This document shows, in pieces, positions 3,349-64,000 of a DNA stretch of 64,000 nucleotides. Each line of letters opens with the position of its first letter. Position 1 is the stretch's first letter. A program made the translations under genes and the position numbers. Source of the stretch: Pirellulales bacterium (lineage in GTDB: Bacteria; Planctomycetota; Planctomycetia; Pirellulales; JACPPG01); NCBI GenBank assembly GCA_036499395.1, contig DASYDW010000063.1:5911-69910 (forward strand), written 5' to 3'. The notes beneath the pieces were generated by a model. It ran no database searches. It worked only from the letters and a program-made list of their open reading frames with translations, and was not told where the DNA came from.

Positions 3349-3756
3349 GAGGATGTGACAAGGGGACTCGTCCTCCACGCTGATGCATTTTAGCTGTGTA
3401 CATCGCACTGCTTTCGAGGGCCGGCGCTTGCATTTGGTGATGTCGCGAATGGCATACCACAAATGGCGAATGTTTGAAAATTACGCAAATAACCAGAGGA
3501 CAATTACCGCCGAAGTGCAAGATACACGGAACTGTGCCTGGCGGTCGATCAGTTAGCCGGTGGCCGCGATCGCGTCCAGGACGCTGAATTGAGCTGATTT
3601 TAACACGATATGGTCGTCCCGCTGTCGCATTGACTGCCGAACGCCGAATCGCGCGTGCTATTTATCGCGATCGACTATTTCTATCGGATGCCTAGGATGC
3701 AGTGCGGAAGGAGAGTCATCGTAAGTCAGCTTTCATCGAGTTAGCCAGGCACAATC

Positions 3757-4077
3757 ATGACGAAACAAGTTTCCGCAACGATCCCCCATTCGCTCGGCAA
3801 GGAAGAGGCGCGCCGCCGGCTACAAGAAGGTTTCGCTAGGATTCGGCAGCAGCTCAGCGGTGGCCTGGCAGGAATGCTCGCATTTCATGACCGGTGGGAC
3901 GGCGACCGCCTGTATTTTGAGGGAGGCGCCATCGGGCAAAAAATCAGCGGCCGGTTGGACGTTCTCGCAGACTCAGTTCAGATTCAGTTGGATCTTCCGA
4001 ACGTACTCGCCCTGATCGCCGAGCAATTCACCGGTCGGCTGAAAAAAGAGACTCAAGTGCTCTTAGAGAACAAATAA
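3757..4077 (+). CDS. small protein resembling the putative polyhydroxyalkanoic-acid system protein family (PHA_gran_rgn-like)
   Basis: 106 aa. The opening is IPHSLGKEEARRRLQEGF and the tail is GRLDVLADSVQIQLDLPNVLALIAEQFTGRLKKE. Both follow the pattern remembered for that roughly 90-100-aa family. Not verified by search. Confidence 0.4.
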   Translation: MTKQVSATIPHSLGKEEARRRLQEGFARIRQQLSGGLAGMLAFHDRWDGDRLYFEGGAIGQKISGRLDVLADSVQIQLDLPNVLALIAEQFTGRLKKETQVLLENK

Positions 4078-45798: not shown

Positions 45799-47491
45799 GC
45801 TCAGCCCTTTGCCCAATCTTCAATCGCATCGCGAAGCATTTAAAGGAAGGTCGCGATCCATGAAATACGACCGCCTGACGTCGACCGGGCGGTCTAATGA
45901 CCAGTGCCGGACGAGGTCGAATTTGCAGGCGACGTGCCTGAAACAGGCGTGCATTCAAGAAAGCGCAGTCCAACCCTATATGTTACTATTGTCTTTCCCC
46001 GTCTAGACATTAGTACAGTGGCTCCGCACCGCCTCCCAGGCTACCTTGCCGCAAAACGACCCTCAAGTAAAAACCCCAAGAGGCCAGGCGTTTCTGCGTG
46101 CTACACTGGTCCGATTTTGTCCCCTATTCCGGCCAGTTCGAAGGGATACCGTTCACTAATGGCGGTCCGGCATCCCGAAAAATGGCCACTCGAAGGGGAA
46201 ATACTTCTTCGATAAAAATGAGTTGAACAGCCCACTCAGTAGCCGGCGCTGAAATTGCACTAATCGAATCGGTGGGACCGCAGCGATGGGCGCCGGTCAG
46301 AAATTATCCATGCATACTGAGTGGTGCGCCACTGCCGCGAACTACTTCTCCGATTTGCTTCGGTCCGACACACCGACGCAGTGGTGCGAAAACAAAGTCC
46401 GGTATCCGCCCATCCGGCACAGTCGAAGCGCATGAATCGTTTCAGAAAACGACCAAATAACGAGACGAGTAAAGTACCAACGTCCGCCGTTATCGAATGC
46501 TGCAAACGGACAAGCGGTCCGGTTGTGCTCGGACGGCAATGACATCACCGGAACGAGCAGTTGCGGAAAGTTGTCATTTCTAAGACTGCTCCGTTTTAGG
46601 AACCTTTGATAGGACCCATTGGTGTGCTGCTGCGACTAAATTAGAGTTTCGCGTTCGCTCCGTTTCACCGCATTGACCCGAATGGGCGGTATTGGGGAAA
46701 AACGCGCGGCCGACCCGCCATACGCCAGGCGCTTCGAACGCTTCCTCGCCATTTCCACATACGCAGGCCGTACTTGATGCGATTTGCAATCTTCGCGCCC
46801 TTGACGATGCCGACGGCATCGGCGACGGATTTTTTGGTCAGACAGTGCCTCCGATTACATCCATCACAACAAGAGATCGGAACCTTCGGGCAAAGAAGGG
46901 CTGCTCGATGTGCGGATAATCGATGGTCTGCGACGCTCCTATCTTGGGTATCGCACGATCAAGCTGCAGCCCCTGGCCAGAGTGCAGCGTCCGTATCGCG
47001 GCTAGCCCATTAAGAGACGCCCTACGAGAAAGCCCGCGCCGGTGAAGGCCCCTCCTCCTTCGAAAAAGTTGGAACTGTAACGCAGCATCATGGCGGTCAC
47101 GAATCGGGCCGGAACGGCGCTGTTTGCATCCGCGGATTTGTTGCGGATGAATTTCCGTGGAAATGCCAGGAAGGCGATTGGTATTAGTTGCCGTGCGACT
47201 CGTCGTGTTTGCGAGTGAAAGTCGCTGACGGCCATGTTCTCTGGCTCTCATTTGTTCAAGGCAGATGGGGGGCTTATCGCCGGTGCGTCGCGCATTGCCC
47301 GCGCTATGTAGTTGCCGTCGTGACAAGTCCCCCCTATGTGCGACGAGTTGCGCGCAAATCCTGCGTTGTGACTTGTTTCTGCGCTGCGCGATGTTTACAA
47401 CGTGCGCCTACCAACTGCGCTACATCGAGTGCAAAGCCTGGCGAACAGTCTTCGCAGGTCTTGGTAACCGCGGCTTTCTAAGGGGGCATCC

Positions 47492-50908: not shown

Positions 50909-52507
50909 CTACGGCCGGCTGCGCCGGTGCTCGCGCAACTCGGCAAGCTCTTTTTGCATGTCTTGCACTTTCTCCGGCATCTGCGCTGCCAAATTATGTT
51001 TTTCGCCCGGATCGTCCGCCAGGTTCACCAGCATCGGCTCGCGATCGGGCTTGCCACCGTAGCCGGCCTGGCTGGATTGCAAAAGCTTCCACGGTCCGTC
51101 GCGCAGCGCCAGGACACCCGGATAGCCGCCCGTGTGATGCACCAGCTTGTCGCGCACGGCGCTGGGCTTGCCCAACAGCGCCGGCAGAGCGTTGTAGCTG
51201 TCCGGTGCTTCGTCGTCAGTCAATGTCCGGCCCAAAAGCGCCGCGCATGTGGCGAAGAGATCGACGTGGCAGATCAATTGATCCGAGACACCCACGGGCA
51301 CATGCCCCGGCCAGCGGGCAATGAACGGAACGCGATGGCCCCCCTCGAACAAACTCCCCTTGAAGCCGCGCCAGTCACCGTTGGGGCGCTTTGCGCCGAG
51401 ATCGCCTGCGGCCCCGTCCTGATAACCGTCATCGAGAACGCCGCCGTTATCGCTGGTGAAGATAACCAGCGTGTCCTTGGCAAGATCGGCGCGCTCGAGC
51501 GAGGCCAGGATTTCGCCCACCGATCCATCGAGCTGCATAATCACGTCGCCGCGCGCGCCGTGGCCGCTACGATCGGCATAGCGCGGGTGCGGGACGCGCG
51601 GCACGTGAATGTCATGCGTACAGAAGTACAAAAAGAACGGTCGATTGCGCTCGCGCTCGATGAATTGCACGGCCGCGCGTGTCAACACGTCCGCCATTTC
51701 GGTGTCGACCCACCGCGCGGACTTTCCGCCCGACATATACCCAATGCGGCTGATGCCGTTGACGATCGTATTGTCATGCCCGTGGCTGGGCAGGATCGTC
51801 ATCAGCTCGGGGTTGGCCTTGCCGGTGGGATCGTTGCCGATCGGCGTGCCGTAGCTGACTTGGATCGGATCATTTGGGTCGTAACCAACGACACGACGAT
51901 CCTCGACGTAAACACATGGCGTGCGATCGCCTGTGGCCGGCACGCCGAAAAAACTGCTGAAACCAATTTCGAGAGGGCCGGGCTTGATCTCGCGGTTGTA
52001 GTCGGTCTGGCCCGTGATGGTGCCGTCCGGCAATCGCTCGCCGCCAAGCCCCAGGTGCCACTTGCCGACGGCGGCGGCCTCGTAGCCCGACGCTTGAAAG
52101 CGTATGGCCAGCGTAGTCCCGGAAACCGGAATGCATAGCGGCGAGACGCCGCTTAAGATCCCTGCGGCCGGCTTGTGCCGCCAGGCGTATTGGCCGGTAA
52201 GCAACGCATAGCGCGTCGGGGTGCAGACCGACGAGGGGGAGTGCGCGTCGGTGAAACGCCGCCCCGCGCGCGCCAGCCGATCGATGTGCGGAGTTTCGAC
52301 CTCGGTCGCCCCGTAACAGCCCAAGTCTCCGTAGCCGACATCGTCGGCCAGAATAATGATGACGTTCGGTCTGCCCGATGGCTCCGCGAAACAGGCCTGA
52401 TTTACACCGCCGAATGACGAAAGTCCGCAAACCCAGCCAATGATTAGCAAAGTGAATCTGCCTAGCCAATATCGGACGGACGAGCTGATGACGGAATTGG
52501 AAAGCAT
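50909..52507 (-). CDS. arylsulfatase A-family sulfatase (formylglycine-dependent), secreted
   Basis: SSVCTPTRYALLTGQY (CxPxR), GKWHLG and N-terminal DDVGYGDLGCYG. The signal peptide follows the ATG at 52507. This ATG, unlike the upstream TTG at 52537, is conserved in the second copy of the 98-bp cassette. Confidence 0.92.
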   Translation of the reverse strand: MLSNSVISSSVRYWLGRFTLLIIGWVCGLSSFGGVNQACFAEPSGRPNVIIILADDVGYGDLGCYGATEVETPHIDRLARAGRRFTDAHSPSSVCTPTRYALLTGQYAWRHKPAAGILSGVSPLCIPVSGTTLAIRFQASGYEAAAVGKWHLGLGGERLPDGTITGQTDYNREIKPGPLEIGFSSFFGVPATGDRTPCVYVEDRRVVGYDPNDPIQVSYGTPIGNDPTGKANPELMTILPSHGHDNTIVNGISRIGYMSGGKSARWVDTEMADVLTRAAVQFIERERNRPFFLYFCTHDIHVPRVPHPRYADRSGHGARGDVIMQLDGSVGEILASLERADLAKDTLVIFTSDNGGVLDDGYQDGAAGDLGAKRPNGDWRGFKGSLFEGGHRVPFIARWPGHVPVGVSDQLICHVDLFATCAALLGRTLTDDEAPDSYNALPALLGKPSAVRDKLVHHTGGYPGVLALRDGPWKLLQSSQAGYGGKPDREPMLVNLADDPGEKHNLAAQMPEKVQDMQKELAELREHRRSRP

Positions 52508-52594
52508 GGGCCGTCTCACGGGATGTATGTCGGACAAGTTGTTGGAATTCGACGGTTAGTATCAATCGCCGCACGGCAAGGGTCAACGATTCAT
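52497..52594 (-). repeat. 98-bp promoter/leader/start-codon cassette, copy A (drives the sulfatase gene)
   Basis: 94 of 98 positions are identical to 58858-58955 in the same orientation. On the minus strand it contains TTGACC (52581-52586), a 17-nt spacer, GATACT (52558-52563), a ~50-nt leader and ATGCTTTCCAA. Confidence 0.85.
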
Positions 52595-53454
52595 GACAAG
52601 ACGCCGCAAAATGGACAGAAGACCACGAGCGCAGCCGGTGGCGCCCTGGGGGCCCATGTTGGAATTACGGCCCTCTTGGGCGTGAGCCCGCCGTTCGATC
52701 TGCAGTTCAGCGCACTGCTGGGCACGATTCACGGCGATGTGATCCTCGGTCATTCTGAGGCTCACCCTACCGCGGTGCCCGAGCCGAGCAGAAAGTTGGC
52801 TGGATGCGCAGCGGACAAAGGAGCAACGTGACTCACCGCTCTTAAACTACCGTTCAAGTTCCTCGCGAACGACGGAAGTCATTTGCAAATTTCTTGCCGA
52901 ATTTTCAGCGGAGCGGAATGTCACAAAGGCACAGAGCTGGGTCTGGACACTCAGCTCTGCGCCGTCCCTTAACGGCTCTCTCTCGAGTGTTGTTGTGGCA
53001 AGTGTTTCTGAAAGCTCGTCGCGACTTGTAGTTGGGCAACCACGGGTCGACGTTGCGAGTTGCCGCGAGAATTAACTCGCGGCGAAGCGTATATCGCCAG
53101 GCGGATCGAAGTCAGGAAATGCCGGGGGCGCGAATCGCGATTGAGCGATCGCTTCCGACCTGCCCCGCCGTTGAGACAGCAGAGTCTACAACATCCCAGA
53201 CAAGTGTGGAAACCACTTGGGTTTTTGAGCGTCCAATTTAACCACCGAGTTACGATACCGCGAGAATCAATCAGATACGCTCAGTTTGGTGTGCCGCAAG
53301 TAGACAAGCCGCGGCCGCCCCAGAAAGTCGTCATTTCTAGGATCGCGCCATCCGAGGAATGTTTCCTGCCTCGCATGCGGGAAGTGATGAAGTCGTCGCG
53401 TGACACTCATCGCCGCGCCAAGAGATTCCTGGAATCGTTCGACTGGGAATCAAT

Positions 53455-53817
53455 CTAGAAATGGCAGCCACTTCTCAAGTACAGTGCAACGGCGCCAGCG
53501 AGCACAAGTAAGATCGCTGATGGTTCAGGGACAGTCGTCGAACCGCCAGAAGTATGCAGCCAATTCGACGAAACTAATGCAAGATCCTGACCATGGGAAT
53601 GACCCCCACCAAGAGTTGCAGCGATTTTGTGCTGGCACGACGGATCTCCGCTTCGGTCGCGATGAGCGTTAGGTCGGTCAAGAGAGCGGCGCCGGGGGGA
53701 TCGACTTCTGACTTTAATAGCTCGCACGTGGCCGAGGGCTCGATAGCACGCCTCGCTCTGGCCGATCAGCTTGCTCAGCAGTATTGCTGAGGTTACGGAC
53801 AAGCTAACGACAGGCAA
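53455..53817 (-). pseudogene. C-terminal remnant of a dockerin-repeat / PEP-CTERM-anchored protein
   Basis: The ORF ends ...GQDLALVSSNWLHTSGGSTTVPEPSAILLVLAGAVALYLRSGCHF. That is the tail of a dockerin-type repeat followed by a PEP-CTERM sorting signal (VPEPS, TM, basic). The upstream part is Arg-rich nonsense. Confidence 0.55.
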
Positions 53818-53824
53818 TAATGTC

Positions 53825-54406
53825 TCAGCGTAATTCGCGAATTACCCGGACTGGATTGCCCACGGCCAGCACATTCGGCGGCAGATCATGCACGACCACG
53901 GCGCCGGCGCCGACCACGGTGTTTTCACCGATCGTTACGCCTGGGCAGACGATTACGCCGCCGCCGAGCCAGACGTTGTTGCCGATCGTTATCGGCTGAG
54001 AACCTTCCCATTTGGCCCGCCGCGGTCCTGCTTCGAGCGGATGGGTCGGCGTCAGTAGTTGCACGTTTGGGCCGATCTGCACGTCTTCGCCAATCGTGAT
54101 GCGGCCGACGTCAAGCGCCATAAGCCCGCAATTGGCAAATGATCGCGCGCCGACGAAAATGTTATAGCCGTAGTCGCAATAAAACGGTGGTCGGATCACG
54201 GTACCGGCACCAACGCTGCCCAGCAGTTCGAGCAGAATGCGATCGCGTTTACCTTGATCCTCGGCCGGCGTCGCGTTGTATTGGGCGAAGAGGTCCGCAG
54301 CGAGGTTTCCTTCGCGGATCAATTGTGGATCGTCACAGATGTACTGATCCCCGGCTAGCATGCGCTCGCGATTCGTTCGACCATCAGGAGTAAACCGTTT
54401 ATCCAT
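53825..54406 (-). CDS. maa: maltose/galactoside O-acetyltransferase-like hexapeptide-repeat acetyltransferase
   Basis: N-terminal Mac-type region (RERMLAGDQYICDDPQLIRE...FAQYN) followed by left-handed beta-helix hexapeptide repeats (NVWLGGGVIVCPGVTIGENTVVGAGAVV). Confidence 0.88.
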   Translation of the reverse strand: MDKRFTPDGRTNRERMLAGDQYICDDPQLIREGNLAADLFAQYNATPAEDQGKRDRILLELLGSVGAGTVIRPPFYCDYGYNIFVGARSFANCGLMALDVGRITIGEDVQIGPNVQLLTPTHPLEAGPRRAKWEGSQPITIGNNVWLGGGVIVCPGVTIGENTVVGAGAVVVHDLPPNVLAVGNPVRVIRELR

Positions 54407-55036
54407 GGCGACTGCTGCTAATGAATTGATGACTTGCTCTGTCGAGAACTTGGGCGTGTTCTGAGAACCATTTCCTTTAGGGTGATTACTCGCAGGAGGA
54501 TTTCACGGTATTGGCTCCCGTACGATCTTGCCCTTAGCGCCGCTAGTAGGAGTCGCTTGAGCATACTGTCGACGGTTTCGCCTTGCCATCGTTGTCTTTG
54601 TCCCTAGCGCGTCAAAGTGTAGCGCAGGACAACTTTGGCCATTTGCTTGGGCTGTCGATTCCTCGACCATCGGCCCTCGCAGTGAAGAGTGGTCACCACG
54701 CGTTTCAAATTGCGCAGGCATTTGTCGAGAGGGGCCTATCGAAGTCGGGGGACACACCCCGATCACACCGACCGAACACCGCTCGACAGGTTCTCAAGTC
54801 GAACTAACTGGACGCGATCATTGAGCGCCAAATGACACGCCCCTCTGGTGCGCTAGGGCAAACTGGAGACTCGTCTCAACCGCCTGCTCAAAATCTACAG
54901 CAAAATGGCCTCGCTCGATTGGAGCATGTGGCCTGTGCGTAGTATGCTGCACGCCAACGCCCCGGCCCAACCCGCCGCGATGGCTCACGAACCTGCGTTT
55001 TTCAACACTCACCATCTACTGCCACGATCTTGCGCC

Positions 55037-57637
55037 ATGTGTAACGGTCGCCGTATGATCATTCGACATCTTGCCGCTTGCATTTTGATCCTGAGCCTCA
55101 CTGCCGCCGGCTGCGGCAAATCGGCCAGCGAAACTTTTGAGGCGTCGCCTAAATTGCCAAGTAAGTCGGCCGAGCCCTCCGCGAACCGTGCCGATAACGG
55201 CGTCGGTGCGACACCAACGGGTACGCCAATCGACCCGACACCAGCCGGTTCGAGAATCGCCCCTGCCGCGCCGCCTGCACCGAAAGATCCGCCTCCCACG
55301 GCCGAACAAATCGCTCGCTGGACGCCACCGTCGTTCGAGCCGTTGCAACTTCTCGCCGTCCGCCAGTGGAAAAAGACGAGCTTCACCTCGCGCCTCGCTG
55401 CGGCGCTTGACGGCACCCACTACCTCGTTGCCGGTTCGCGCGTCTTGCTCTGGTCGCTAACCGACGACGCGCCCGAACACGTATTCCTCGATCATACTGC
55501 CGATGACACGGACCACGGGCTCAAAGCTATGGCCGTTTCACCCGACGGCAGGTGGTTCGCAGCCGGTGATTCGAAGGGCACATTGCGAATCTGGAGTCTA
55601 GAAGATCGTAAAGAGCTCGTCTCGAAGCAGCTCTACCGCAATGGCATCCAGCACATCGCCATTTCGCCTGATGTCACTGAGATCGCTACTATCGCCTACG
55701 ACAGCGACGTGACGATTTGGACCGCCGACAAGCTCGAGCAAAAGCGGAAGTTCGAAGTCACGTCGCGCGGTGTTGAGCGTATTGAGTACGTCGCCCCGAA
55801 CCTGCTGGCCGTTGCGGGCGAGTCCACGGCGATGTGGAACACCACTACCGGCGACAAAGCGCACGACCTGCCGGCCGGTCGCTACAACTTCGCGCTGGCC
55901 CGCACGCCTGACGGCGCGAAATTCGTCTACGGCGCGAATGAGGTGCTCAGCATCTGGGACATCGCCGCGGCCAAGCCCGACGCGATGATTATCCGCGGCG
56001 TCGGCGGCAACGTGTCGCTCTCCGTTTCGTCCGACGGCAAAACTCTTGCGACGACCGACGGCCGCTCAGTCGACCTTTGGAGTCTCTTGGACGGCCGACG
56101 CTTACAGTCGATGCAAGGATTCGGCGGGACAATCGTCGGCGTCAGTTGGCTGCCGACGACCAATCTGCTCGCGGTCGCATCCGACAGCGGCATCACGCGC
56201 ATTTGGGGGACGCCGGCCCAGGGCGAATCACTCGGCCTCAAGCCGCTCGACACAACGGTTGCGATGCCTGATGCCAATTCCAAAGATCCTGCTACTCCCG
56301 AGCAACTCCTCCAGGTCATCAACTGGCGCACGTTCCCATCGCTGCCGGAGAGCGTATCCAATGTGCAAAACCCGACCGATTTGAGCGGCGTTGCCCCTAT
56401 CGCCGTTCCTGAAGCCCGCGCGTTTTACCGTTACTTCCTGACGAAGGGGGGTTGGAGCGAATCGCCGCCAGACCCGAACAATTCGAGTTCGGTCGAGTTC
56501 CACAAGGGCGGTTCGACAATCACCGCGTACTTCTATGACGCCGGCGAGGGCAAGACGAACTTCAACCTTCACCACGCCGGCAATTTTGATGTGCGGTGGA
56601 CGCCAAAGGCTGACGCGGCGGCCATCAAGATAGTTCACGAAAACGCCGCATCGAGCTCGTATCGTGCGAAGGCCGGCATTCTGCAACTCGAGACATCGCT
56701 CTTGCGCAAACTACACGACGCCGGGTGGACGGCGTACGCGCGGCTCAACAGCTCCTTCCACGAGGAGCCCAACAAACGCGATTTCGAGTTCCTCAGAAAT
56801 GGGGCCACACTCCGCATCTCCATCGGCAAATTTCCTGACGGCACCGAAGAAACATACACCATTCAACAATCGCTAGTCTCGAACAACTCATGGGCGCCCC
56901 CTCCCCCGGACGCTGGCTTCATCGAGTTCGACGGCTCAACTGAGCCGATGCTGATCGCCATCACTAAAATGAACTTGTCTGCCGCGCGCGAGTTCTACGA
57001 CAGCGAAATGACCTCCCGCGGTTGGCTTACGCAAGAAATCGGCCGCTCGCTCCGAGACGAGCAAAACTGGCTCCGCTATCTGCGTGGCCAGTGCGACCTG
57101 ACGGTGAGCTTGACCGATTTGACCGATGGCCGCGTGTTGGTGCGCATCGGAAACGCCTCTGGCTCGATATGGGAGGCCGCACGGCATAAGAAAGACCAAC
57201 CAGAAGAGCCTGCAGCCGCCGGCCTCCAAGCCGCCGATTTCCCGCTGCTCAACACTACGAAGACGGGCAAATTTGACCCGCTCGGCAAGACAATCCAAGT
57301 GCAGCTCGACGGTTCGACCCTAGCCAACGCCGCCGAGGTCTACACGAAGGCGCTCAGCGAACTCGGCTGGAAGGCCGAGACAGATGGCATCCACGATGAA
57401 GAGTACACCTTTTTCCATTTCAACAAAGACGATCAAGAAATCTCGTTCCGCGCTCGCAGGCAAGACGGCGCGGCCATCGTGAGCTGCGACGGAAACGGCC
57501 TGCTTTGGACCAAGGAACTTCCCGGCGGCAAGCAAGTCGTGTCCTACGAAGCCTGGCTGCGCCAAAGTAAGCTGCCGCCAAGCTTGGAGTTTCTCGAGCG
57601 GTACGAAACAGAGATGAAGGCCATCACTGGTATTTGA
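55037..57637 (+). CDS. lipoprotein with N-terminal WD40 beta-propeller and four C-terminal ~100-aa repeats
   Basis: Lipobox-like LSLTAAGC. WD-type blades are present (GTLRIWSLED, SDVTIWTADK, VLSIWDIAAA, SVDLWSLLDG, ITRIWGTP). Four repeats with an FY/VYxxxLxxxGW signature follow. Start is 55037 or 55055. Confidence 0.75.
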   Translation: MCNGRRMIIRHLAACILILSLTAAGCGKSASETFEASPKLPSKSAEPSANRADNGVGATPTGTPIDPTPAGSRIAPAAPPAPKDPPPTAEQIARWTPPSFEPLQLLAVRQWKKTSFTSRLAAALDGTHYLVAGSRVLLWSLTDDAPEHVFLDHTADDTDHGLKAMAVSPDGRWFAAGDSKGTLRIWSLEDRKELVSKQLYRNGIQHIAISPDVTEIATIAYDSDVTIWTADKLEQKRKFEVTSRGVERIEYVAPNLLAVAGESTAMWNTTTGDKAHDLPAGRYNFALARTPDGAKFVYGANEVLSIWDIAAAKPDAMIIRGVGGNVSLSVSSDGKTLATTDGRSVDLWSLLDGRRLQSMQGFGGTIVGVSWLPTTNLLAVASDSGITRIWGTPAQGESLGLKPLDTTVAMPDANSKDPATPEQLLQVINWRTFPSLPESVSNVQNPTDLSGVAPIAVPEARAFYRYFLTKGGWSESPPDPNNSSSVEFHKGGSTITAYFYDAGEGKTNFNLHHAGNFDVRWTPKADAAAIKIVHENAASSSYRAKAGILQLETSLLRKLHDAGWTAYARLNSSFHEEPNKRDFEFLRNGATLRISIGKFPDGTEETYTIQQSLVSNNSWAPPPPDAGFIEFDGSTEPMLIAITKMNLSAAREFYDSEMTSRGWLTQEIGRSLRDEQNWLRYLRGQCDLTVSLTDLTDGRVLVRIGNASGSIWEAARHKKDQPEEPAAAGLQAADFPLLNTTKTGKFDPLGKTIQVQLDGSTLANAAEVYTKALSELGWKAETDGIHDEEYTFFHFNKDDQEISFRARRQDGAAIVSCDGNGLLWTKELPGGKQVVSYEAWLRQSKLPPSLEFLERYETEMKAITGI

Positions 57638-57675
57638 TCTGCTGGTGCCGCCTTGAACTTTGAATACTCAGATGC

Positions 57676-58619
57676 TCACCACGGGCGCCGGTTCCGGCCG
57701 CGGCAGCCCGCGACGTTGAGCCAATCGAAATCGCCGTCTTCGCCTGGTGTCGAAGGCATATCTTCGATCGCAGCTGGTTCATCGAGGGCGATCAGGCCCC
57801 CCAAAGATGAAGCTAGGCGATCCACGGCCTGCGCATGAGTCGTGATTGCGCTTGCTGCGGAATCTGGTACTGGCGCGATCGCCGGCGCGGCGCCGAGCAC
57901 TGTTTTTGCTCCCTTCGAGACACTCGGCACATTCCACGAGTCACGGACGGTAATCGCGGTGCTGCTGATACTCGTCGGCCCGGCGGCGATGTCATTATTC
58001 GTTGTGGGGCCGGCGCTTGGCACGGCAGATGGCTGAGTGATGCTGTTCGCCGTGGCGGCGACGATCGTAGAGGCGTTGACCGTTGCCACAGGTTTGACCT
58101 CGATCACAGATGGCGATTGAACGCTCACGAGCGACTGTGCTCCAGCCGACGACGTCGTCGTTTTCAACCAGTTAGAAGAGATCAGGGCAATGTCTTGGGC
58201 ATTCACAATTCCATCACTGTTCACGTCGCCCGGATTGTTCGCTCCGGTTTGCAACCAGCGAGATGAGACGACAGCAAGGTCCTGCATGTTGACAATGCCA
58301 TCGTGGGTGAGATCGCCAGGCGGCAGGCTTGTTCCATTGAGTTGGATCGCGGGGCCGCCGATGGCACGAATCTCGTTGTTCTTCGCCAGGTCGTTGTCTC
58401 CTCTGCCGCCGTCGATGAAGTGCAGATAGAGATTGCCGACATTCGCCATCCCAGTGCCCGTCGTATCTGGTAACTGGCGGGAACGCCGTTAAAGGATGGG
58501 CTGATCGAGAACGAGCTAACCCAGGTTCCACCGATTATTTGATAACTGCCTGGCCCAGCGGCAACGAAGCTGTTATTGCCAGGGCCACCGAGCATCAGCC
58601 CACCACGGCTGGCAATCAT
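57676..58619 (-). pseudogene. dockerin-repeat (EF-hand-like DxDGxVNxxD) secreted protein, apparently frameshifted
   Basis: Two dockerin-type repeats: GDLTHDGIVNMQDLAVVSSRWL and GDVNSDGIVNAQDIALISSNWL. The N-terminal part (58221-58619 frame, ...SFNGVPASYQIR) continues in a different frame (DTTGTGMANVGNLYLHF...) near 58450-58470. There is no signal peptide on either piece. Confidence 0.55.
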
Positions 58620-58857
58620 CGTCGCGCCGATGTCAAGCAGATTCTTGAAGGTCCGCTCGAAGTGCAGTTCGACGACGTCGGCATTTTCGACTGACGCCGC
58701 TGAACGACAATCGCTAGGTCACTGCGCCCCAACTTGCTTGGCCTTGGCAACTGTGATGACCATATCGTGCATACTCGATGCGCAACAATTTAAGCGTGGC
58801 CGATGAATCCATGCCATTCCAGAACTAGATTCAAGCCCCCGTTCAGTCGTATCCCGC

Positions 58858-58955
58858 TTGGAAAGCATGGGCCGTCTCACGGGACGTATTTCGGAACAGT
58901 TGTTGGAATTCGACGGTTAGTATCAATCGCCGCACGGCAAGGGTCAACGATTCAT
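58858..58955 (-). repeat. 98-bp promoter/leader/start-codon cassette, copy B (upstream of the decayed dockerin gene)
   Basis: Same TTGACC (58942-58947), 17-nt spacer and GATACT (58919-58924) as copy A. Similarity to copy A ends abruptly on both sides. Confidence 0.85.
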
Positions 58956-59107
58956 TGCCAGCATCGAGACATCCCAAACCCAACACGTCTTATCCCTTAT
59001 CAGCATGTTCCCGGTGATCGATCATGTACGGTACGATGAAGGCGGCCGTCCGCTCGTTCGAAGGCACTCGTCCGCATGGAAACATTTTTCTGTAAGAGGA
59101 ATTCCAT

Positions 59108-59719
59108 ATGCGTAGGTCGATAATCCTGTTCCTAGGGCTTGGCATGATGGCGACACTGCTGCCGCGTTCATTGGCGGTCGCGGGCGAGAAGGATCGGCCC
59201 CGCGTTTCCGACTTCAAGGTCGTCACATTTGGGACGGACGAGGCCGCGAATATCGAACGATTGGCTGAATTGGCGGCTGACGGATGGGAGTACGTCGGAC
59301 CACTCAATCCTGGAACGGTTGCCTTTCGCAAAGTTGCCACGAAGGCCGCGGCCAGGGACATGGCCAAATTGTCAGGCGTCTGGATCAATGTCTACACCGA
59401 ACAAAATGGAATCCGTGACACCCCCGACTCTCGGCATGTCTTCGTCGGCAACCGATATTTTGTGATCGACGGCGAGACCGTCACCGAGGACGGCACGTTC
59501 GTGATCGATGTTTCTGGGCCCGTCAACAAGATTGACTACAAGTGTGTTCGCGGAGCTTATGCAGGACTCACATGGCGCGGAGTGTACGAGTTGGACGGAA
59601 ATACGTTTCGACATTTCGGCCCCTGGGGAACCAATAACTGGAAGAACCGGCCCGTGGCCATGGCCACGCAAACCGATGCGACCACATTCCTGCGGGTTAT
59701 GAGACGTGAGGCGCCCTAG
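59108..59719 (+). CDS. secreted protein with Planctomycetes-type TIGR03067-like domain
   Basis: Signal peptide MRRSIILFLGLGMMATLLPRSLAVAG. The C-terminal half LSGVWINVYTEQNGIRD...GTFVIDVSGPVNKIDY...WRGVYELDGNTFRHF...RPVAM follows the TIGR03067 pattern (LxGxW ... GxYxLxGdxL ... RP). Confidence 0.65.
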   Translation: MRRSIILFLGLGMMATLLPRSLAVAGEKDRPRVSDFKVVTFGTDEAANIERLAELAADGWEYVGPLNPGTVAFRKVATKAAARDMAKLSGVWINVYTEQNGIRDTPDSRHVFVGNRYFVIDGETVTEDGTFVIDVSGPVNKIDYKCVRGAYAGLTWRGVYELDGNTFRHFGPWGTNNWKNRPVAMATQTDATTFLRVMRREAP

Positions 59720-60027
59720 CATAGGCCGAACAGTTCCGTGCATGGGATCGGAAATTCGCCCTAACGAGAGATGGGCGATTGAAGCAGATCTCGGACGGCG
59801 CGGCATTTTTCAACGGAATCTTTTCCACGCTGTCGAGAATGATCTGACTGCAGAGCGTGAACGCGCGACGGCCCTGCTGCACCGCACCGTCGAAATGGTT
59901 TGGCCGTGCAGCAAAGCGGGACCCGCTTCATCGGGGCGGCATGAAGCGCAGATCCCGAACGCCCGGCCTTCACGCTCAAAGTCTATTGGACAGAGAGTGC
60001 CGATTGCATCAACCAGAGGAGTTTTGC

Positions 60028-60321
60028 ATGAGCATTGCGGAGCACGAGACAGCGAACGCCGCGGCAATTGCGGTCGAGGAACTGGTCGATATCATCGAGA
60101 GGATCGAGCGGCTGGAAACGAAAAAAGCTTCGATCGGCGCGGATATACGCGACATCTACGTTGAGGCAAAAGGTGCCGGCTTTGACGTGAAGGCGCTCCG
60201 CGAGATTATCAAGATCCGCAAAATCGACGCCCACAAGCGCGAGGAACAAGAGACGGTGCTCGAGGTCTACAAACGGGCGCTGGGCATGGACTCGGATCTG
60301 GACGCGGAAGAAGCCGCGTAA
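60028..60321 (+). CDS. GapR-like DUF2312 (UPF0335) small DNA-binding protein
   Basis: AGAGGAG lies upstream of the ATG. 97 aa. ELVDIIERIERLETKKASIGADIRDIYVEAKGAGFDVKALREIIKIRKIDAHKREEQETVLEVYKRALG matches the DUF2312 hallmark (ERIERLE ... YAEAKGxGFDxKxLRxxxxxRK ... YxxALG). Confidence 0.8.
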   Translation: MSIAEHETANAAAIAVEELVDIIERIERLETKKASIGADIRDIYVEAKGAGFDVKALREIIKIRKIDAHKREEQETVLEVYKRALGMDSDLDAEEAA

Positions 60322-60431
60322 CTGACGAGCTTCCGCGTGACGTCTCGCCCACTCCTGACAACGGAGCGAGGCCCGATCAAGTAGCAAGACACTTCCCTGG
60401 CTCACCCTCCCATTTCGGCGGGGGGGGCATC

Positions 60432-60469
60432 AACCGCGATTTCGGCGTTATAGGCCGGACGCGGTTTTT
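60432..60469 (+). terminator. candidate intrinsic terminator after the GapR-like gene
   Basis: ACCGCG-att-tCGGC-gttatag-GCCGga-CGCGGT followed by TTTTTT (60464-60469). Confidence 0.5.
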
Positions 60470-60943
60470 TCATTTACGGTGAAAACTTTTGCGCGACGTC
60501 GAGTTCGAAGAGCGCGAACAACGTTCGTTGAGCCGCTCATCTGACAATTGACGGTCGTGTCTTAAAGCGATGTTTCCTTCGGGCGCGCGCGAATCTGCAC
60601 CAGTGACACGCCATCTGGCCGATTGTCATCGAATGGACGAATGAACTTGCCTACCAACCGATTAGCGCCCCAAGGCCCGTCACCTAATCCAAAGGCAGCC
60701 GTACACCCTCTAAAAACTCAGAGCACTGCCGAGGGCACAAAAGGACCCCAGCGTCATTAATTCGCATCCCAGTAAAGTTCCCCGAATACGACTGAACAAC
60801 AAAACAACTACTAATGAAACGACGCGATGCTTTTGGATATGTTCCATTACCGCGTGTCCGAAACTGGACTCGTACGCTGTCGGCGGCGATAATTTTTAAT
60901 CGAGGCGGTTCGGAGCAGAGAATTTGCGAACAGAGGCGAATCG

Positions 60944-63847
60944 ATGAAAGATTTTGCCGGGACATATACAAGGTTCGGAATCTGGCTGGCAGCGGCGTTG
61001 TGCGTCGTTGCTGCCTGGCACTCGCCAGGAGTGGCCGCGGAAGGAGAGCCGCAACTGAGCATGTCGCTCGTCTGTCTCAACGCGGAAGAGCCTGATACCA
61101 GCGGCATCGAGTCTAGCAGCAAGTTGTTCCTTCGCGAACTATTGCGGCAAGCCGTGCTCATGGCAGTCCGCGACGAGGTCGGCCAGGGGACGCGCGATCG
61201 CGTGCTGCGCGAAGACTTTCCCGACGGAGCGCAGGTCTTTGGTGTCAAAACATCGCACAACGAGTCGCGACATTGGCAAATGAAGATCCTCGCGCCCGGC
61301 AACGGCAACGATGTGCTATTCGAACGGCGTCTCGAAATTCCGCCCGCCGAGCCAGGCACGATCGACTACCTGGCGCATGTAGCCTTGGCCGAGGAACTGG
61401 TCCGCACCGACCTGAAGAAATTCTGGCAGCAACGATTTGCCGACGGCAAAGCGAACGGCACGGACGCAAGCAAAAATGTTCCGCCGGAAACTGCGCGCGA
61501 CGTCGAACAAATGAACTGCGTCTCGCAAATTTCAGCGCTACGCGACCTGCACGAATTACATCGCACGCAGGGCGAGTCGCCCGCGACGATGGCTGCCCTG
61601 ATTCGGGCCTACGCGCACCTGGGTCAACTGACGATGCTGCATTGGAACGCCTCGCATTGCGTTTACCAAACGCGCTCGCTGCTCTACGCCCAGCGGTGGT
61701 GCGCCCGTGAGCCGCGTTCGGCACTCGCGATTTGGCATCGCGCTTATGCGCTGGCCCTGGCGGGCTTGCATCAGCAGGCGCTATTGGATTTGAAGACGGC
61801 CGAGGAGCTCGCGAAAAACGCAGGCGATCCCAAGCAGGCTGCGCGCCCGGGCTGGGTGCCGATGATCGAGGGCCTTTGCCGGTACGACATTGATAGCCTG
61901 TACGAAGCCACGAAAAAGGACGGGCCATACATGCAGCTCGCTTGGCTGTGCACCTACCTGGCGGTCGAACCGGGCGCCGACGCCGAGAATGAACGTCTCA
62001 CCATCGGCTTCGAAGCGTTGAAGGGCGTGCCAGAATGCCTGCGGATCTCGGCCTCGATGTCGAGCACCGAGGGATACGACGCCAAGCACCGCGTGACCAA
62101 GCACGGTGTAAAGACCGTGACTTCGGCCTGGCGAACGCGACTCTTGGGCATGAACGGTTTGCCGGACGCGGTGCGACTAACGGCCGACAAGATTACGCCG
62201 GCCCCCGAGGATTACATCTTTGGCCGTGGGACCGATGTTCCAGGGCTATTCGCCGATGTGCGCCCCGTCGTCGAGGCGTGTGTTGCAGCCGGCGGCGCCG
62301 ATCGGGGCGAACCCTCGATGGCGGCCCTCGGTCGGCTGCTGGAAGACATGACGTTTCTCGAGGTTGCAAACCGTCAGGAGTTCTACGCCGTGGCCTGGGG
62401 ACACGGCCAACTTCCTGATCAGCATATTCAAGCGGCGCTCGATCTCTTTCCGCACCACCCGTACCGGGTTTTCTTCACGTTGGCAGCGATGCATCCCAAA
62501 AATGATGGCCAGAATTACTGGACGCCGCTGGCTGATCTCGATATCGTCGACGCGGATACGAGCCAACGACTGCTCATCGATCGCACTTGGACCAGCCCGT
62601 ACACCCAGCGAATTCAAGGGGCGAGGGCCGTTGATCGGGCACTCGCTCATGCCGACGACGCCGCGTACGCGCTCACGTTCTTTCTGCAGTTCGCCAAGGA
62701 TCATGGGCAGCAAGTCCAGCACGCCGAGACCTTGACGAAAGTCAGCCCCTACTGCCCGTTGGGCATGGCGACCCTGGTCCGCCTGGACTGGGACAAGTAC
62801 GCACAAGGAAAAGAAGCCGAACTTGAAAAGGAATACGCCGACCGGCCACTCGTGCTCGCCGCGCTCGCGCGACAATATCTCAATCGCAACCGGCCTGACG
62901 ATGCACAGCGCGCCCTCGAGGCTTACTTAAAGCTGTCGTCCGGTTGGTGGGCCTACGAAGCGCTGGCCAACATCTATTTGTCGCGTGGGGACGAAGAGCG
63001 TTGGCTATCCACGTTGCTCGCCAGCTTGAATCACGAAGACTTCTTCGGCATGCACGAAGAAGTGCAAGAGAAGCTGACGCGACATTACATGGCCAAAAAA
63101 GAATGGGAGAAAGCGCTCCCCTACGCGGACGCGGGCATTGAATTGGGCGCCGCGTGGGCCCTGGATTGCGCCATCACTTGCCATACAGAGCTGGAGCACT
63201 GGGAAGAAGCCGAGCAATATGCCCGTTTCCACCCGGGACGGATGGAACCCATGGGACCGCGTTGGTACGTTTGGTGCCGCATGACTGGCCATGGAAATCT
63301 GAAGGAAGCGCGCGCCGCGGTGTTTGAATACTACAAGCAACTCGAAGAGCGGGCCACTTCGCAAAACTGGATACCGATCGGCTTTTTCAAGTATGGCGAG
63401 AAGGACAAGGAGGGCGCGCTGAAGGCCTATCGAAATGCGATGAACTTGAGCAAGAGTCCGTTGGCGGCCCTGCTTTCGGCCCTCATTATGGATGAAGACC
63501 ATCGCGATGCCGAACGGGATGAGCTGCTAGCCGGCATCGCCAAGCTGACTCCTCCCGAGGAAAGTCGCAAAGTGATGGTGCGGCTGGCGGCGATCGTTCA
63601 GTCGTCCGTGGCGAATGGCCCGGAGCACAAGCTCGATATCGAGGCAATCGAGAATTTGGCAAATGTTTCGGAGGAAGATTCGCGCGACGAGATTTGCCTG
63701 GTGGCAGGCCAATACTTGGAAAATCGGGGCGAGCGGAAAAAAGCGATCGAGTATTATCGCCGCGCAGCGGCAATCACGGGCTGGAACTTTCCAAAGCTCG
63801 GCGCTGCCATGCGAATGTGGGAACTGGAGCAGCAGAAGGGGCACTAG
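60944..63847 (+). CDS. large secreted TPR/helical-repeat protein (unknown function)
   Basis: 967-codon ORF with signal-like FGIWLAAALCVVAAWHSPGVAA. The C-terminal two thirds have repeated helical A/L/Y/W-rich units typical of TPR/Sel1-like repeats (for example RALEAYLKLSSGWWAYEALANIYLSRGD, KKAIEYYRRAAAITG). Confidence 0.65.
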   Translation: MKDFAGTYTRFGIWLAAALCVVAAWHSPGVAAEGEPQLSMSLVCLNAEEPDTSGIESSSKLFLRELLRQAVLMAVRDEVGQGTRDRVLREDFPDGAQVFGVKTSHNESRHWQMKILAPGNGNDVLFERRLEIPPAEPGTIDYLAHVALAEELVRTDLKKFWQQRFADGKANGTDASKNVPPETARDVEQMNCVSQISALRDLHELHRTQGESPATMAALIRAYAHLGQLTMLHWNASHCVYQTRSLLYAQRWCAREPRSALAIWHRAYALALAGLHQQALLDLKTAEELAKNAGDPKQAARPGWVPMIEGLCRYDIDSLYEATKKDGPYMQLAWLCTYLAVEPGADAENERLTIGFEALKGVPECLRISASMSSTEGYDAKHRVTKHGVKTVTSAWRTRLLGMNGLPDAVRLTADKITPAPEDYIFGRGTDVPGLFADVRPVVEACVAAGGADRGEPSMAALGRLLEDMTFLEVANRQEFYAVAWGHGQLPDQHIQAALDLFPHHPYRVFFTLAAMHPKNDGQNYWTPLADLDIVDADTSQRLLIDRTWTSPYTQRIQGARAVDRALAHADDAAYALTFFLQFAKDHGQQVQHAETLTKVSPYCPLGMATLVRLDWDKYAQGKEAELEKEYADRPLVLAALARQYLNRNRPDDAQRALEAYLKLSSGWWAYEALANIYLSRGDEERWLSTLLASLNHEDFFGMHEEVQEKLTRHYMAKKEWEKALPYADAGIELGAAWALDCAITCHTELEHWEEAEQYARFHPGRMEPMGPRWYVWCRMTGHGNLKEARAAVFEYYKQLEERATSQNWIPIGFFKYGEKDKEGALKAYRNAMNLSKSPLAALLSALIMDEDHRDAERDELLAGIAKLTPPEESRKVMVRLAAIVQSSVANGPEHKLDIEAIENLANVSEEDSRDEICLVAGQYLENRGERKKAIEYYRRAAAITGWNFPKLGAAMRMWELEQQKGH

Positions 63848-63873
63848 ACGCGATTGCACTGCGCTCGCGCCGA

Positions 63874-64000
63874 TTAGCTCCCGTGCGCCTGCACGCTCTC
63901 GTAGGTGCGGGTGACGACGTTCGATTTCGAATTCGTCACCGCAATCTGATACAGATCCTGGCCGCAGGGCGTCGGATACTCACCCGTCAGGCAGGCCTGG
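63874..64000 (-). CDS. purF: C-terminal end of a probable amidophosphoribosyltransferase (partial, runs off the right edge)
   Basis: The minus frame reads ...QACLTGEYPTPCGQDLYQIAVTNSKSNVVTRTYESVQAHGS*. The ACxTGxYPT segment resembles the conserved PurF C-terminus. Only 41 codons are visible. Confidence 0.4.
   Translation of the reverse strand, partial: QACLTGEYPTPCGQDLYQIAVTNSKSNVVTRTYESVQAHGS

Follow-up and report, generated by a model that had tools for sequence, protein, structure and literature searches.

Genes and gene fragments around the two repeat copies

The window, i.e. the whole stretch of 64,000 nucleotides analysed here, carries on its minus strand an intact arylsulfatase gene (50909-52507; 532 aa, signal peptide, PF00884), the 5' end of which lies within a 98-nt repeat. 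This copy A (52497-52594, minus strand) covers positions -87 to +11 of the sulfatase gene, including the ATG and the following 8 nt, and a second copy in the same orientation (copy B, 58858-58955, minus strand, with its ATG at 58868-58866) is located further upstream. The two copies enclose 6,263 bp, in the following referred to as the 6.26-kb block. Directly upstream of copy A, approximately 860 nt contain no recognisable gene (52595-53457), followed by the C-terminal fragment of a dockerin-repeat and PEP-CTERM protein (relic, 53458-53841, minus strand), an intact gene for a sugar (maltose-type) O-acetyltransferase (53825-54406, minus strand) and an intact gene for a WD40/beta-propeller lipoprotein of 860 aa (55055-57637), which lies on the plus strand, opposite to the repeats, and whose product has no close relatives elsewhere. 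Beyond copy B, a 152-nt spacer leads to a divergent 203-aa gene with a TIGR03067 domain (59108-59719, plus strand; spacer and gene together 58956-59719), and this gene, GapR and TPR967 form the conserved-side flank.

The block genes are host-like in GC3 and codon usage, and no foreign composition of the block was found. Searches with Pfam, NCBIfam and PHROGs, covering the called genes and, in the relic stretches, every stop-to-stop piece with a length of 35 aa or more in any frame, revealed no integrase, transposase or recombinase and no remnant of one within the block. Furthermore, no phage signal was found in the block, and it showed no resemblance to plasmid or phage records except for the conserved acetyltransferase.

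JGI, NCBI and Logan independently place the start codon of the sulfatase at the ATG within copy A (52507-52505), confirming the proposal from the sequence-only reading that copy A provides the start codon and the first residues; it contributes the first four codons of this intact gene. For copy B, ORF and homology mapping likewise bore out that decayed dockerin-type sequence lies downstream of it. The ORF that starts at its ATG has 49 codons only (58719-58868, minus strand, stop codon TGA at 58721-58719), and the encoded peptide has no signal peptide and no known homologues. The same frame continues past the TGA and, after approximately 29 unmatched codons, enters a 56-aa fragment from the interior of a family of large secreted proteins (58464-58631, minus strand); recognisable homology begins 79 codons in and ends abruptly on both sides of the fragment. 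This fragment is 65-79% identical to mid-protein segments of proteins of up to 3,239 aa, with 79% to residues 269-324 of a 490-aa homologue. In a different frame, starting 420 nt downstream of the copy B ATG, a 257-aa ORF called as a gene by JGI (57676-58449, minus strand) starts inside the final third of a choice-of-anchor-U domain and continues with two dockerin repeats and a tail of low complexity, without a signal peptide. This ORF is identical in three assemblies and probably represents a relic that has lost its 5' part. There is no gene headed by copy B, only a mosaic of gene fragments behind it.

Extent, identity and copy number of the repeat

Direct reading, alignment and a repeat finder agree that 52497-52594 and 58858-58955 (98 nt each) are identical at 94 of 98 positions in direct orientation, with a start-to-start spacing of 6361 nt. 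The similarity drops immediately at either edge, and the flanks are unrelated. The originally described 98-bp direct duplication, 6.3 kb apart and with sharp edges, was thereby reproduced, also by a second assembler (see below). Both copies share an identical core of 57 nt, for which, allowing up to three mismatches, only two occurrences exist in the window and none in 100 shuffles.

All four differences lie in the leader, as had been noted before, at repeat positions 59, 60, 66 and 71 (minus orientation). In copy A they lie at 52524, 52529, 52535 and 52536 within a 13-nt patch (52524-52536, minus strand), and in copy B at 58885, 58890, 58896 and 58897. They span 13 of 98 nt (P=0.005 for four random sites), the other 85 nt being identical, and separate a putative promoter block (57 nt) from an RBS/start block (27 nt), both of which are perfectly conserved between the copies. 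Clustered differences in an otherwise identical repeat fit a recent event plus one local change. The conservation of the two blocks at this P value could instead mean selection on both copies, including a functional copy B.

Two Logan contigs from SRR11833507, one on the A side (L004) and one on the B side (L008), each carry their own variant set and both start exactly 30 nt (k-1) ahead of the first difference between the copies, and a third contig (L017), coming from the upstream side, stops 30 nt into the identical core. These variant sets and contig ends reproduce the two-copy structure in a second assembler. An assembly artefact, in which a separate molecule or a distant locus was threaded into the chromosome at a shared repeat, appears extremely improbable: although the source is a metagenome assembly and the 57-nt core is a branch point of the k=31 Logan graph, where upstream and downstream flanks cannot be linked, both the core and the 98-nt repeat are shorter than typical reads and large assembly k-mers, the variant patch of each copy is tied to its own downstream flank in two assemblies, and the outer flanks are syntenic with relatives. 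Moreover, a 6.36-kb circle of these genes would carry no replication or mobility function.

Across the window, its flanks and approximately 260 kb of related sequence, two copies only were found; nhmmer yielded no diverged copies, and there was no third copy in the window or the related loci. Additional copies may exist in the other ~420 kb of the source contig or elsewhere in the MAG. Two different sub-patterns of the 98-mer were additionally searched in 185,579 species genomes, the JGI metagenome collection and the IMG/VR viral contigs, again with no match; these collections did not return the source contig itself either and are therefore silent on the remainder of the source genome.

Putative promoter, leader and start codon

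Read on the minus strand, both copies contain TTGACC, a 17-nt spacer and GATACT, followed after approximately 44-50 nt by ATGCTTTCCAA. The putative -35 and -10 elements are located at 52586-52581 and 52563-52558 in copy A, and at 58947-58942 and 58924-58919 in copy B. These sigma-70-type hexamers match the consensus at 9 of 12 positions with a spacing of 17 nt, and the -10 element ends 50 nt ahead of the ATG. Sites of this 9/12 quality occur five times in this 10 kb versus 3.4 times expected in shuffles, which means that the resemblance offers no statistical evidence on its own. From the description of each copy as a near-consensus promoter with leader and start codon, the arrangement of hexamers, leader and ATG stands, and the label near-consensus, with a 9/12 match at about chance frequency, carries no statistical weight by itself. 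A planctomycete promoter consensus was not found in the literature consulted. We infer that the 98 bp represent the 5' control region of this gene, with putative promoter activity.

A cis-regulatory leader RNA (riboswitch or attenuator) found no support, since the 98-mer matched no relevant Rfam family even at E-values up to 10 and has no stable conserved structure. No stable fold was detected on either strand (z-scores -0.8 to +1.9), and the leader folds are no better than those of shuffles and differ between copies A and B. Having these z-scores and no palindromic hairpin unit, the repeat was also rejected as REP/REPIN. Terminal inverted repeats at the ends of the 98-mer and duplications in its flanks were likewise not found; a MITE or other IS-derived miniature element would be expected to have terminal inverted repeats and target-site duplications.

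Comparison with related genomes

The locus is embedded in syntenic flanks, TauE-RoxA-DinB-purF-TPR at one end and the mature sulfatase at the opposite end, and the interval between the purF/TPR flank and the mature sulfatase occurs in three types in four genomes. In one relative (L005), purF and the sulfatase are separated by 67 nt; in two others (L006 and L014), TPR is followed by a 183-aa gene, with or without an ECF sigma factor gene, divergent from the sulfatase at a distance of approximately 0.3 kb; in the source genome the interval measures 8.7 kb. The relatives, with sulfatases 80-81% identical, have neither the 98-mer nor the block. The possibility that the similarity would turn out to be part of a longer duplicated gene fragment once related genomes were compared did not materialise, as the relatives simply lack the sequence. 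In the search for an empty site with a single att copy, these relatives, the closest available, showed an entirely different upstream interval.

Homology to the orthologues begins only ~120-138 nt into the sulfatase ORF, at RPNV..ILADD; nothing in the orthologues, which share 80-81% identity in the mature part, corresponds to the first ~40 codons or to any sequence ahead of them. The other lineages, too, vary in signal peptide and upstream region. Removing one 6361-bp unit in silico produces a compact divergent region, in which the 203-aa gene and the sulfatase are separated by 239 nt, similar to the layout in L014.

Discussion

We give about an even chance to a local two-copy duplication that was made as the block went in upstream of the sulfatase, leaving one working and one orphaned copy. 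According to this proposal, the 98 bp, comprising a putative sigma-70-type promoter (-79 to -51), a 5' UTR of ~44 nt and the start codon plus 8 nt, would have been duplicated once and locally when a 6.26-kb block with the WD40 lipoprotein gene, the acetyltransferase gene and several gene fragments landed between the divergent 203-aa gene and the sulfatase. With a full copy A staying on the sulfatase, this gene would have remained expressible, and the orphan copy B would now face gene debris. The event may have been a single-crossover (Campbell-type) insertion via the shared 98 bp, or a break repair duplicating the target. A Campbell-type event presupposes an earlier second copy, and we know of no standard mechanism that yields a 98-bp target duplication. 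The repeat, its occurrence in two copies throughout the available sequence, the intact gene behind A, the debris behind B and the lack of both repeat and block in relatives were observed directly; promoter activity, the direction of the event and its mechanism are what we infer. No outgroup carries the 98-mer, and either A may be the original and B the orphan, or B the original and A captured. An origin by recombination and a repeat-mediated deletion of the 6.3-kb segment are the most plausible parts of the original interpretation, and the two copies remain substrates for homologous recombination, with a block deletion that would leave a divergent intergenic region of 239 nt.

The opposite direction, in which copy B was the native 5' end of a since-destroyed gene and illegitimate recombination gave the sulfatase both copy A and a new signal-peptide segment, is unlikely but has several observations on its side: the absence of a counterpart for the first ~40 sulfatase codons and their upstream region in the 80-81% identical orthologues, the normal-looking divergent promoter position of copy B 152 nt from the 203-aa gene, and an ATG that is in frame with the downstream fragment except for a single TGA. 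However, this ATG is not followed by a signal peptide, the first homology behind it appears 79 codons in and matches the internal part of large proteins, the novelty of the sulfatase 5' end is not specific because signal peptides and upstream regions vary in other lineages as well, and the signal-peptide segment is untraceable to copy B since the similarity stops 11 nt into the ORF. That both copies are functional and kept by selection or gene conversion, with copy B driving the 49-aa protein, a non-coding transcript or the 257-aa dockerin ORF, seems very doubtful. The confinement of all four differences to the 13-nt patch between perfectly conserved blocks (P=0.005) would agree with it, as would the JGI call of the 257-aa ORF and its identity in three assemblies, yet the clustering is accounted for just as well by a single complex mutation soon after the copies arose in a recent duplication, the 257-aa ORF begins mid-domain, without a signal peptide and 420 nt behind the ATG, relatives of the 49-aa ORF were not detected, and transcription from copy B would enter the WD40 gene in antisense direction.

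That the 98-mer belongs to a family of dispersed repeats or putative mobile promoters, with more copies before other genes elsewhere in the genome, is rather improbable. High-identity upstream pairs before unrelated genes are common in prokaryotes according to the summary in PMC3575422, but two copies in 64 kb plus flanks, only 6.3 kb apart, are not what a random small family would be expected to give, the genome, metagenome and viral collections and the nhmmer search returned no further copies, the 98-mer has no terminal inverted repeats, target duplications or hairpin, and copy B heads no gene. The idea of a portable expression module common to non-homologous genes found no backing in the sequence searched: one copy only serves a gene, and neither a third copy nor a mobile-element hallmark was detected there. 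It is very unlikely that the repeats are attL and attR of a decayed integrative element, inserted in the sulfatase 5' end and bringing a replacement promoter and start. Direct repeats of ~100 bp do bracket a discrete block with decayed genes, and the duplicated segment is exactly what keeps the target gene expressed; against this, no integrase, recombinase or remnant was present in any frame, the cargo consists of ordinary planctomycete surface-protein and acetyltransferase genes of host-like composition, and the block is unlike plasmid and phage records apart from the conserved acetyltransferase, the WD40 protein having no close relatives elsewhere. There is likewise only a slim probability that a self-contained promoter-leader-start cassette is actively copied before genes, or that an unknown integrase-less insertion duplicates ~100 bp of a target 5' end; if either were true, further copies would be expected elsewhere in this Pirellulales genome.

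Integration of prophages or islands is known to duplicate gene ends, e.g. e14 or phage 21 in icd of E. coli, where elements are recognisably mobile, an integrase lies beside one att site and the 3' end of the target is duplicated. The present locus shares the ~100-bp direct repeats flanking a block and a duplicated target-gene end that keeps the gene intact, but here no recombinase is found, the duplication concerns the 5' end (putative promoter and start) and the cargo does not resemble that of such elements. Correia, ERIC and REPIN, listed as promoter-bearing miniature elements in PMC3575422, resemble the 98-mer in being ~100-bp repeats able to carry promoter hexamers and possibly overlapping an ORF start; in contrast, they have terminal inverted repeats or palindromes and target-site duplications, all absent from the 98-mer, and number tens to hundreds per genome, against two copies of the 98-mer in the sequence searched.

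Closer in appearance is promoter reuse by putative mobile promoters (PMPs; Matus-Garcia, Nijveen & van Passel 2012, as summarised in PMC3575422), of which, following that summary, more than 4,000 families exist, mostly pairs with a mean identity of 92%, defined by a minimum of 80% identity across 50 nt or more of upstream regions in a -150 to -50 window. As in PMPs, a similar upstream segment (96% over 98 nt; 94/98) stands beside non-homologous downstream sequence in one genome with two members, similarity ending 11 nt into the ORF between unrelated flanks, and the 98-mer is no IS, tRNA or Rfam RNA. However, copy A extends from -87 to +11 with 38 nt only inside the -150 to -50 window, and no annotated start lies within 150 nt of copy B, which precedes the called dockerin ORF by 409-506 nt and is separated from the 203-aa gene on the opposite strand by at least 153 nt. 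Additionally, PMPs are found at unrelated loci, whereas the copies here bracket one contiguous block and the repeat runs into the coding region. The concept of switched intergenic regions (IGRs) or horizontal regulatory transfer (Oren et al., as presented in PMC5890482) fits in that the region upstream of a syntenic orthologous sulfatase is replaced by non-homologous sequence in the source genome, L005 and L006/L014. As outlined there, the concept describes an IGR swap between strains without a duplicated new IGR a few kb upstream, and the replaced stretch here also takes in signal-peptide codons and up to 8.7 kb of genes.

In conclusion, the repeat resembles a scar left in a variable region by local rearrangement more than a travelling expression cassette, which makes it fairly ordinary. 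It adds one instance to promoter reuse and switched intergenic regions, catalogued thousands of times, and raises no new question; it would weigh more only if copies at unlinked loci showed real mobility. If the reading of a local duplication is right, the locus would provide a natural example of a gene keeping its promoter and start codon despite several kb dropped in front of it, the orphan promoter copy would be raw material for later promoter reuse or block deletion, and the interval between the purF/TPR flank and the sulfatase would be rearrangement-prone in this Pirellulales clade.

Extent, copy number and assembly of the repeat pair

The two 98-nt segments at 52497-52594 (copy A) and 58858-58955 (copy B), both read on the minus strand, agree at 94 of 98 positions, and alignment and a repeat finder alike show the similarity dropping abruptly at both edges, just as the sequence-only reading had described. 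Their identical core of 57 nt occurs only these two times in the window when up to three mismatches are allowed and never in shuffled sequence; the window contains no third copy, and a profile search of approximately 260 kb of sequence found no diverged one. Copies A and B differ at positions 59, 60, 66 and 71 of the 98; these four fall within 13 nt, a clustering with P=0.005 if sites are placed at random, and the other 85 nt are the same. This pattern fits a recent duplication and one later change that was local and possibly complex; gene conversion that homogenised the copies would fit it as well, and selection acting in both copies on the promoter and RBS/start blocks could explain it equally, three readings that two sequences do not separate.

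On the minus strand, each copy carries the previously noted arrangement of TTGACC, a 17-nt spacer, GATACT and a leader of about 44-50 nt that runs into ATGCTTTCCAA. The hexamers agree with the consensus at 9 of 12 positions, but the same scan picks up five such sites in this 10 kb where shuffling would lead one to expect 3.4, so the promoter match alone is not evidence. The literature yielded no usable planctomycete promoter consensus, Rfam held no family matching the repeat at E values up to 10, and no RNA or DNA fold of either strand outperformed shuffled sequence.

In an independent assembly of SRR11833507 (k=31), the contigs are interrupted at the repeat, exactly as a repeat with two contexts would predict. 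The Logan contigs from the sulfatase side (L004) and the dockerin side (L008) both start 30 nt ahead of the first A/B difference, each with its own set of variants, and the contig from the side of the divergent 203-aa gene (L017) ends 30 nt into the identical core. Mis-threading of the assembly is unlikely because both core (57 nt) and repeat (98 nt) are shorter than typical reads and large assembly k-mers. The window is part of the 487-kb contig Ga0376653_0000046 of JGI metagenome 3300036781, attributed by NCBI to a Pirellulales MAG. Exact-protein look-ups with five window proteins returned the same population only (JGI 3300036781 and 3300037258, Logan SRR11833507), and among these matches there was no strain-level variant with an empty site.

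Searching for copies elsewhere, we used the pattern ATCGTTGACC-N17-GATACTAACC, which recovers both window copies yet gave 0 matches in JGI metagenome contigs and 0 in genome contigs (185,579 species genomes); the source contig must therefore be missing from, or masked in, both collections, and these scans test other organisms only, not the remainder of the source genome. The leader 21-mer GTGAGACGGCCCATGCTTTCC had three matches in genome contigs (two in Hyphomicrobiales, one in Terriglobus), which we rejected as chance because their flanks do not match. Viral contigs (IMG/VR) gave 0 matches for both halves of the repeat. The protein-homology search missed sequences known to be in its collection, namely the sulfatase and a 102-aa ORF for a chimeric query that shared 45 and 32 identical residues with them, and TPR967, a TPR-protein gene product of the window, itself (100%), so that its negatives for short or partial matches are not trustworthy.

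Genes behind and between the copies

A 532-aa arylsulfatase (50909-52507, minus strand) with a plausible signal peptide begins at the ATG of copy A, and the JGI, NCBI and Logan gene calls agree on this start, which bears out the earlier assignment. Copy A is followed by an intact gene, whereas copy B is not. The ATG of copy B indeed opens only 49 codons, an ORF without a signal peptide that terminates at TGA, and a further 29 codons beyond it lack any match. Next comes a stretch of 56 residues whose identity to interior parts of large proteins is 65-79% (e.g., residues 269-324 of a 490-aa protein, or the region near residue 800 in proteins of 2,000-3,200 aa), with homology ending abruptly on each side. 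In a different frame from this stretch, a 257-aa ORF called by JGI, likewise without a signal peptide, begins in the last third of a choice-of-anchor-U domain and then runs through two dockerin repeats into a low-complexity tail. What follows copy B is thus a mosaic of gene remnants, and the recognisable fragment did not natively begin at the ATG of copy B. The fragments near copy B are not duplicates of genes elsewhere in the window.

Within the debris, two 27-nt segments (58417-58443 and 58659-58685), 242 nt apart and with 70% identity, each specify an N-x-x-x-x-x-L-H-F strand resembling the one that ends choice-of-anchor-U domains; because they encode the same strand, the debris may hold two partial modules of this domain. 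Two further JGI calls, the 102-aa ORF at 52523-52831 (plus strand), which reads copy A on the plus strand over its first 24 codons, and one of 51 aa at 58539-58694 (plus strand) within the dockerin debris, had no family match and are probably spurious.

The 6.26-kb block between the copies holds two intact genes, encoding an 860-aa WD40 lipoprotein (on the opposite strand) and a sugar O-acetyltransferase, together with a C-terminal dockerin/PEP-CTERM fragment and about 860 nt without anything recognisable. Its GC3 and codon usage are those of the neighbouring genes. No integrase, transposase or phage-like gene was found in any frame of its relic stretches, a PHROGs search of all genes returned nothing relevant, and the ends of block and repeats showed no terminal inverted repeats, flanking target duplications or other structure. 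Compared with plasmids and phages, only the conserved acetyltransferase matched, and no relatives of the WD40 protein were found in metagenomes. The acetyltransferase gene (53825-54406, minus strand) shares 72-74% DNA identity with genes of actinobacterial replicons (Nonomuraea, Streptomyces); so high a value is unusual between phyla this far apart and could reflect strong conservation or an old transfer. Elsewhere, the window contains a 2,595-aa NRPS gene (38029-45816, minus strand; AMP-binding, PP-binding and condensation domains) and an uncharacterised ORF of 2,947 aa (6383-15226, minus strand).

Comparison with related loci

The closest orthologous sulfatases are 80-81% identical to that of the source, and in every relative the homology to the source starts only 120-138 nt into the sulfatase ORF, at the RPNV..ILADD motif past the signal peptide. 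In L005, purF is followed after 67 nt by the sulfatase. L014 (GCA_037975565.1) has the same TauE-RoxA-DinB-purF neighbourhood as the source, followed by two TPR genes and then by the genes for a 183-aa protein and an ECF sigma factor, which lie divergent to the sulfatase across about 317 nt; L006 resembles L014 minus the sigma gene and one TPR gene. The source has TPR967, a GapR gene, the 203-aa TIGR03067-domain gene (59108-59719, plus strand), copy B, the block and copy A. The interval from the purF/TPR flank to the mature sulfatase (52387-63874 in the window, 9934-10088 in L005, 2681-3792 in L006 and 8243-10001 in L014) amounts to 67 nt in L005, 0.3-1.7 kb with the 183-aa gene with or without the ECF sigma gene in L006 and L014, and 8.7 kb in the source. 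We rejected four different sulfatase upstream regions in the four genomes, since the alignment shows that L006 and L014 have a common one, different from those of the source and L005; there are therefore three locus types. No sequence resembling the 98-mer occurs in the relatives.

Several further features of these loci were observed. At 8243-8358 (minus strand) in L014 and 3660-3800 (plus strand) in L006, the signal peptide is encoded in a different frame from the mature part of the sulfatase, and the L014 gene call has a GTG start and no signal peptide; the break is either a real frameshift (pseudogene or relocalised enzyme) or an error common to two assemblies. TPR genes of about 960 aa are present as two tandem paralogues in L014 (10001-15912), but singly in L006 (47-2850) and in the source (60944-63847). 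Because the L006 copy is 88-91% identical to the second L014 gene while its 5' end matches both, the sequences suggest a deletion through recombination between tandem paralogues. The gene for a GapR-like nucleoid-associated protein (60028-60321, plus strand; PF10073, and NF010247 above cut-off), between the 203-aa gene and TPR967, is not at that position in L005, L006 or L014; among its matches is a PHROG of unknown function.

Origin of the repeat pair

A published catalogue of promoter reuse lists over 4,000 families, most of them pairs, in which nearly identical upstream regions precede unrelated genes (PMC3575422), and upstream regions 'switched' between lineages are a described concept (PMC5890482). 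The repeat pair is conceptually alike, and the locus also shows lineage-switched upstream regions (PMC5890482). By position, however, the repeat departs from the operational definition of PMPs, with only 38 nt in the -150 to -50 window and copy B away from an annotated start (PMC3575422); the block, unlike an integrative element, is without a recombinase, and the repeat differs from MITEs and REPs in structure and apparently, with two copies in the window, in copy number. On these grounds, the pair is best classed as an ordinary instance of promoter reuse rather than a member of a specific element family.

The best-supported origin is a single local duplication of the sulfatase 5' control region, which would have arisen as the 6.26-kb block came to separate this region from its gene or, put another way, the 203-aa gene from the sulfatase. 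Copy A would be the working copy and copy B an orphan whose transcript, if any, would cover only debris and run antisense into the WD40 gene. A single crossover via 98 bp of shared sequence, or break repair with target duplication, may have been the mechanism, each giving this geometry. The polarity is one that we infer rather than observe, and the main rival is the reverse event, in which a copy of B was captured by the sulfatase. The sequence-only reading is supported in part: the shared segment and its arrangement stand, but the portable expression module shared by non-homologous genes that it had seen is not supported, only copy A having an intact gene behind it and no third copy turning up in the window or in the collections searched. 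We consider it very unlikely that the 98-mer is a truly mobile cassette of promoter and start, or the product of some unknown insertion mechanism by which the 5' ends of genes are duplicated.

If one repeat unit of 6,361 bp were deleted from the source, the 203-aa gene and the sulfatase would lie divergently across 239 nt, a compact layout like that of L014. As the earlier reading had also suggested, recombination between the repeats, with their perfect 57-nt core, could plausibly delete the block. The stretch from the purF/TPR flank to the mature sulfatase is a variable region with three locus types in four genomes, and the 98-mer, which the relatives lack, belongs to the source lineage's version of this interval.
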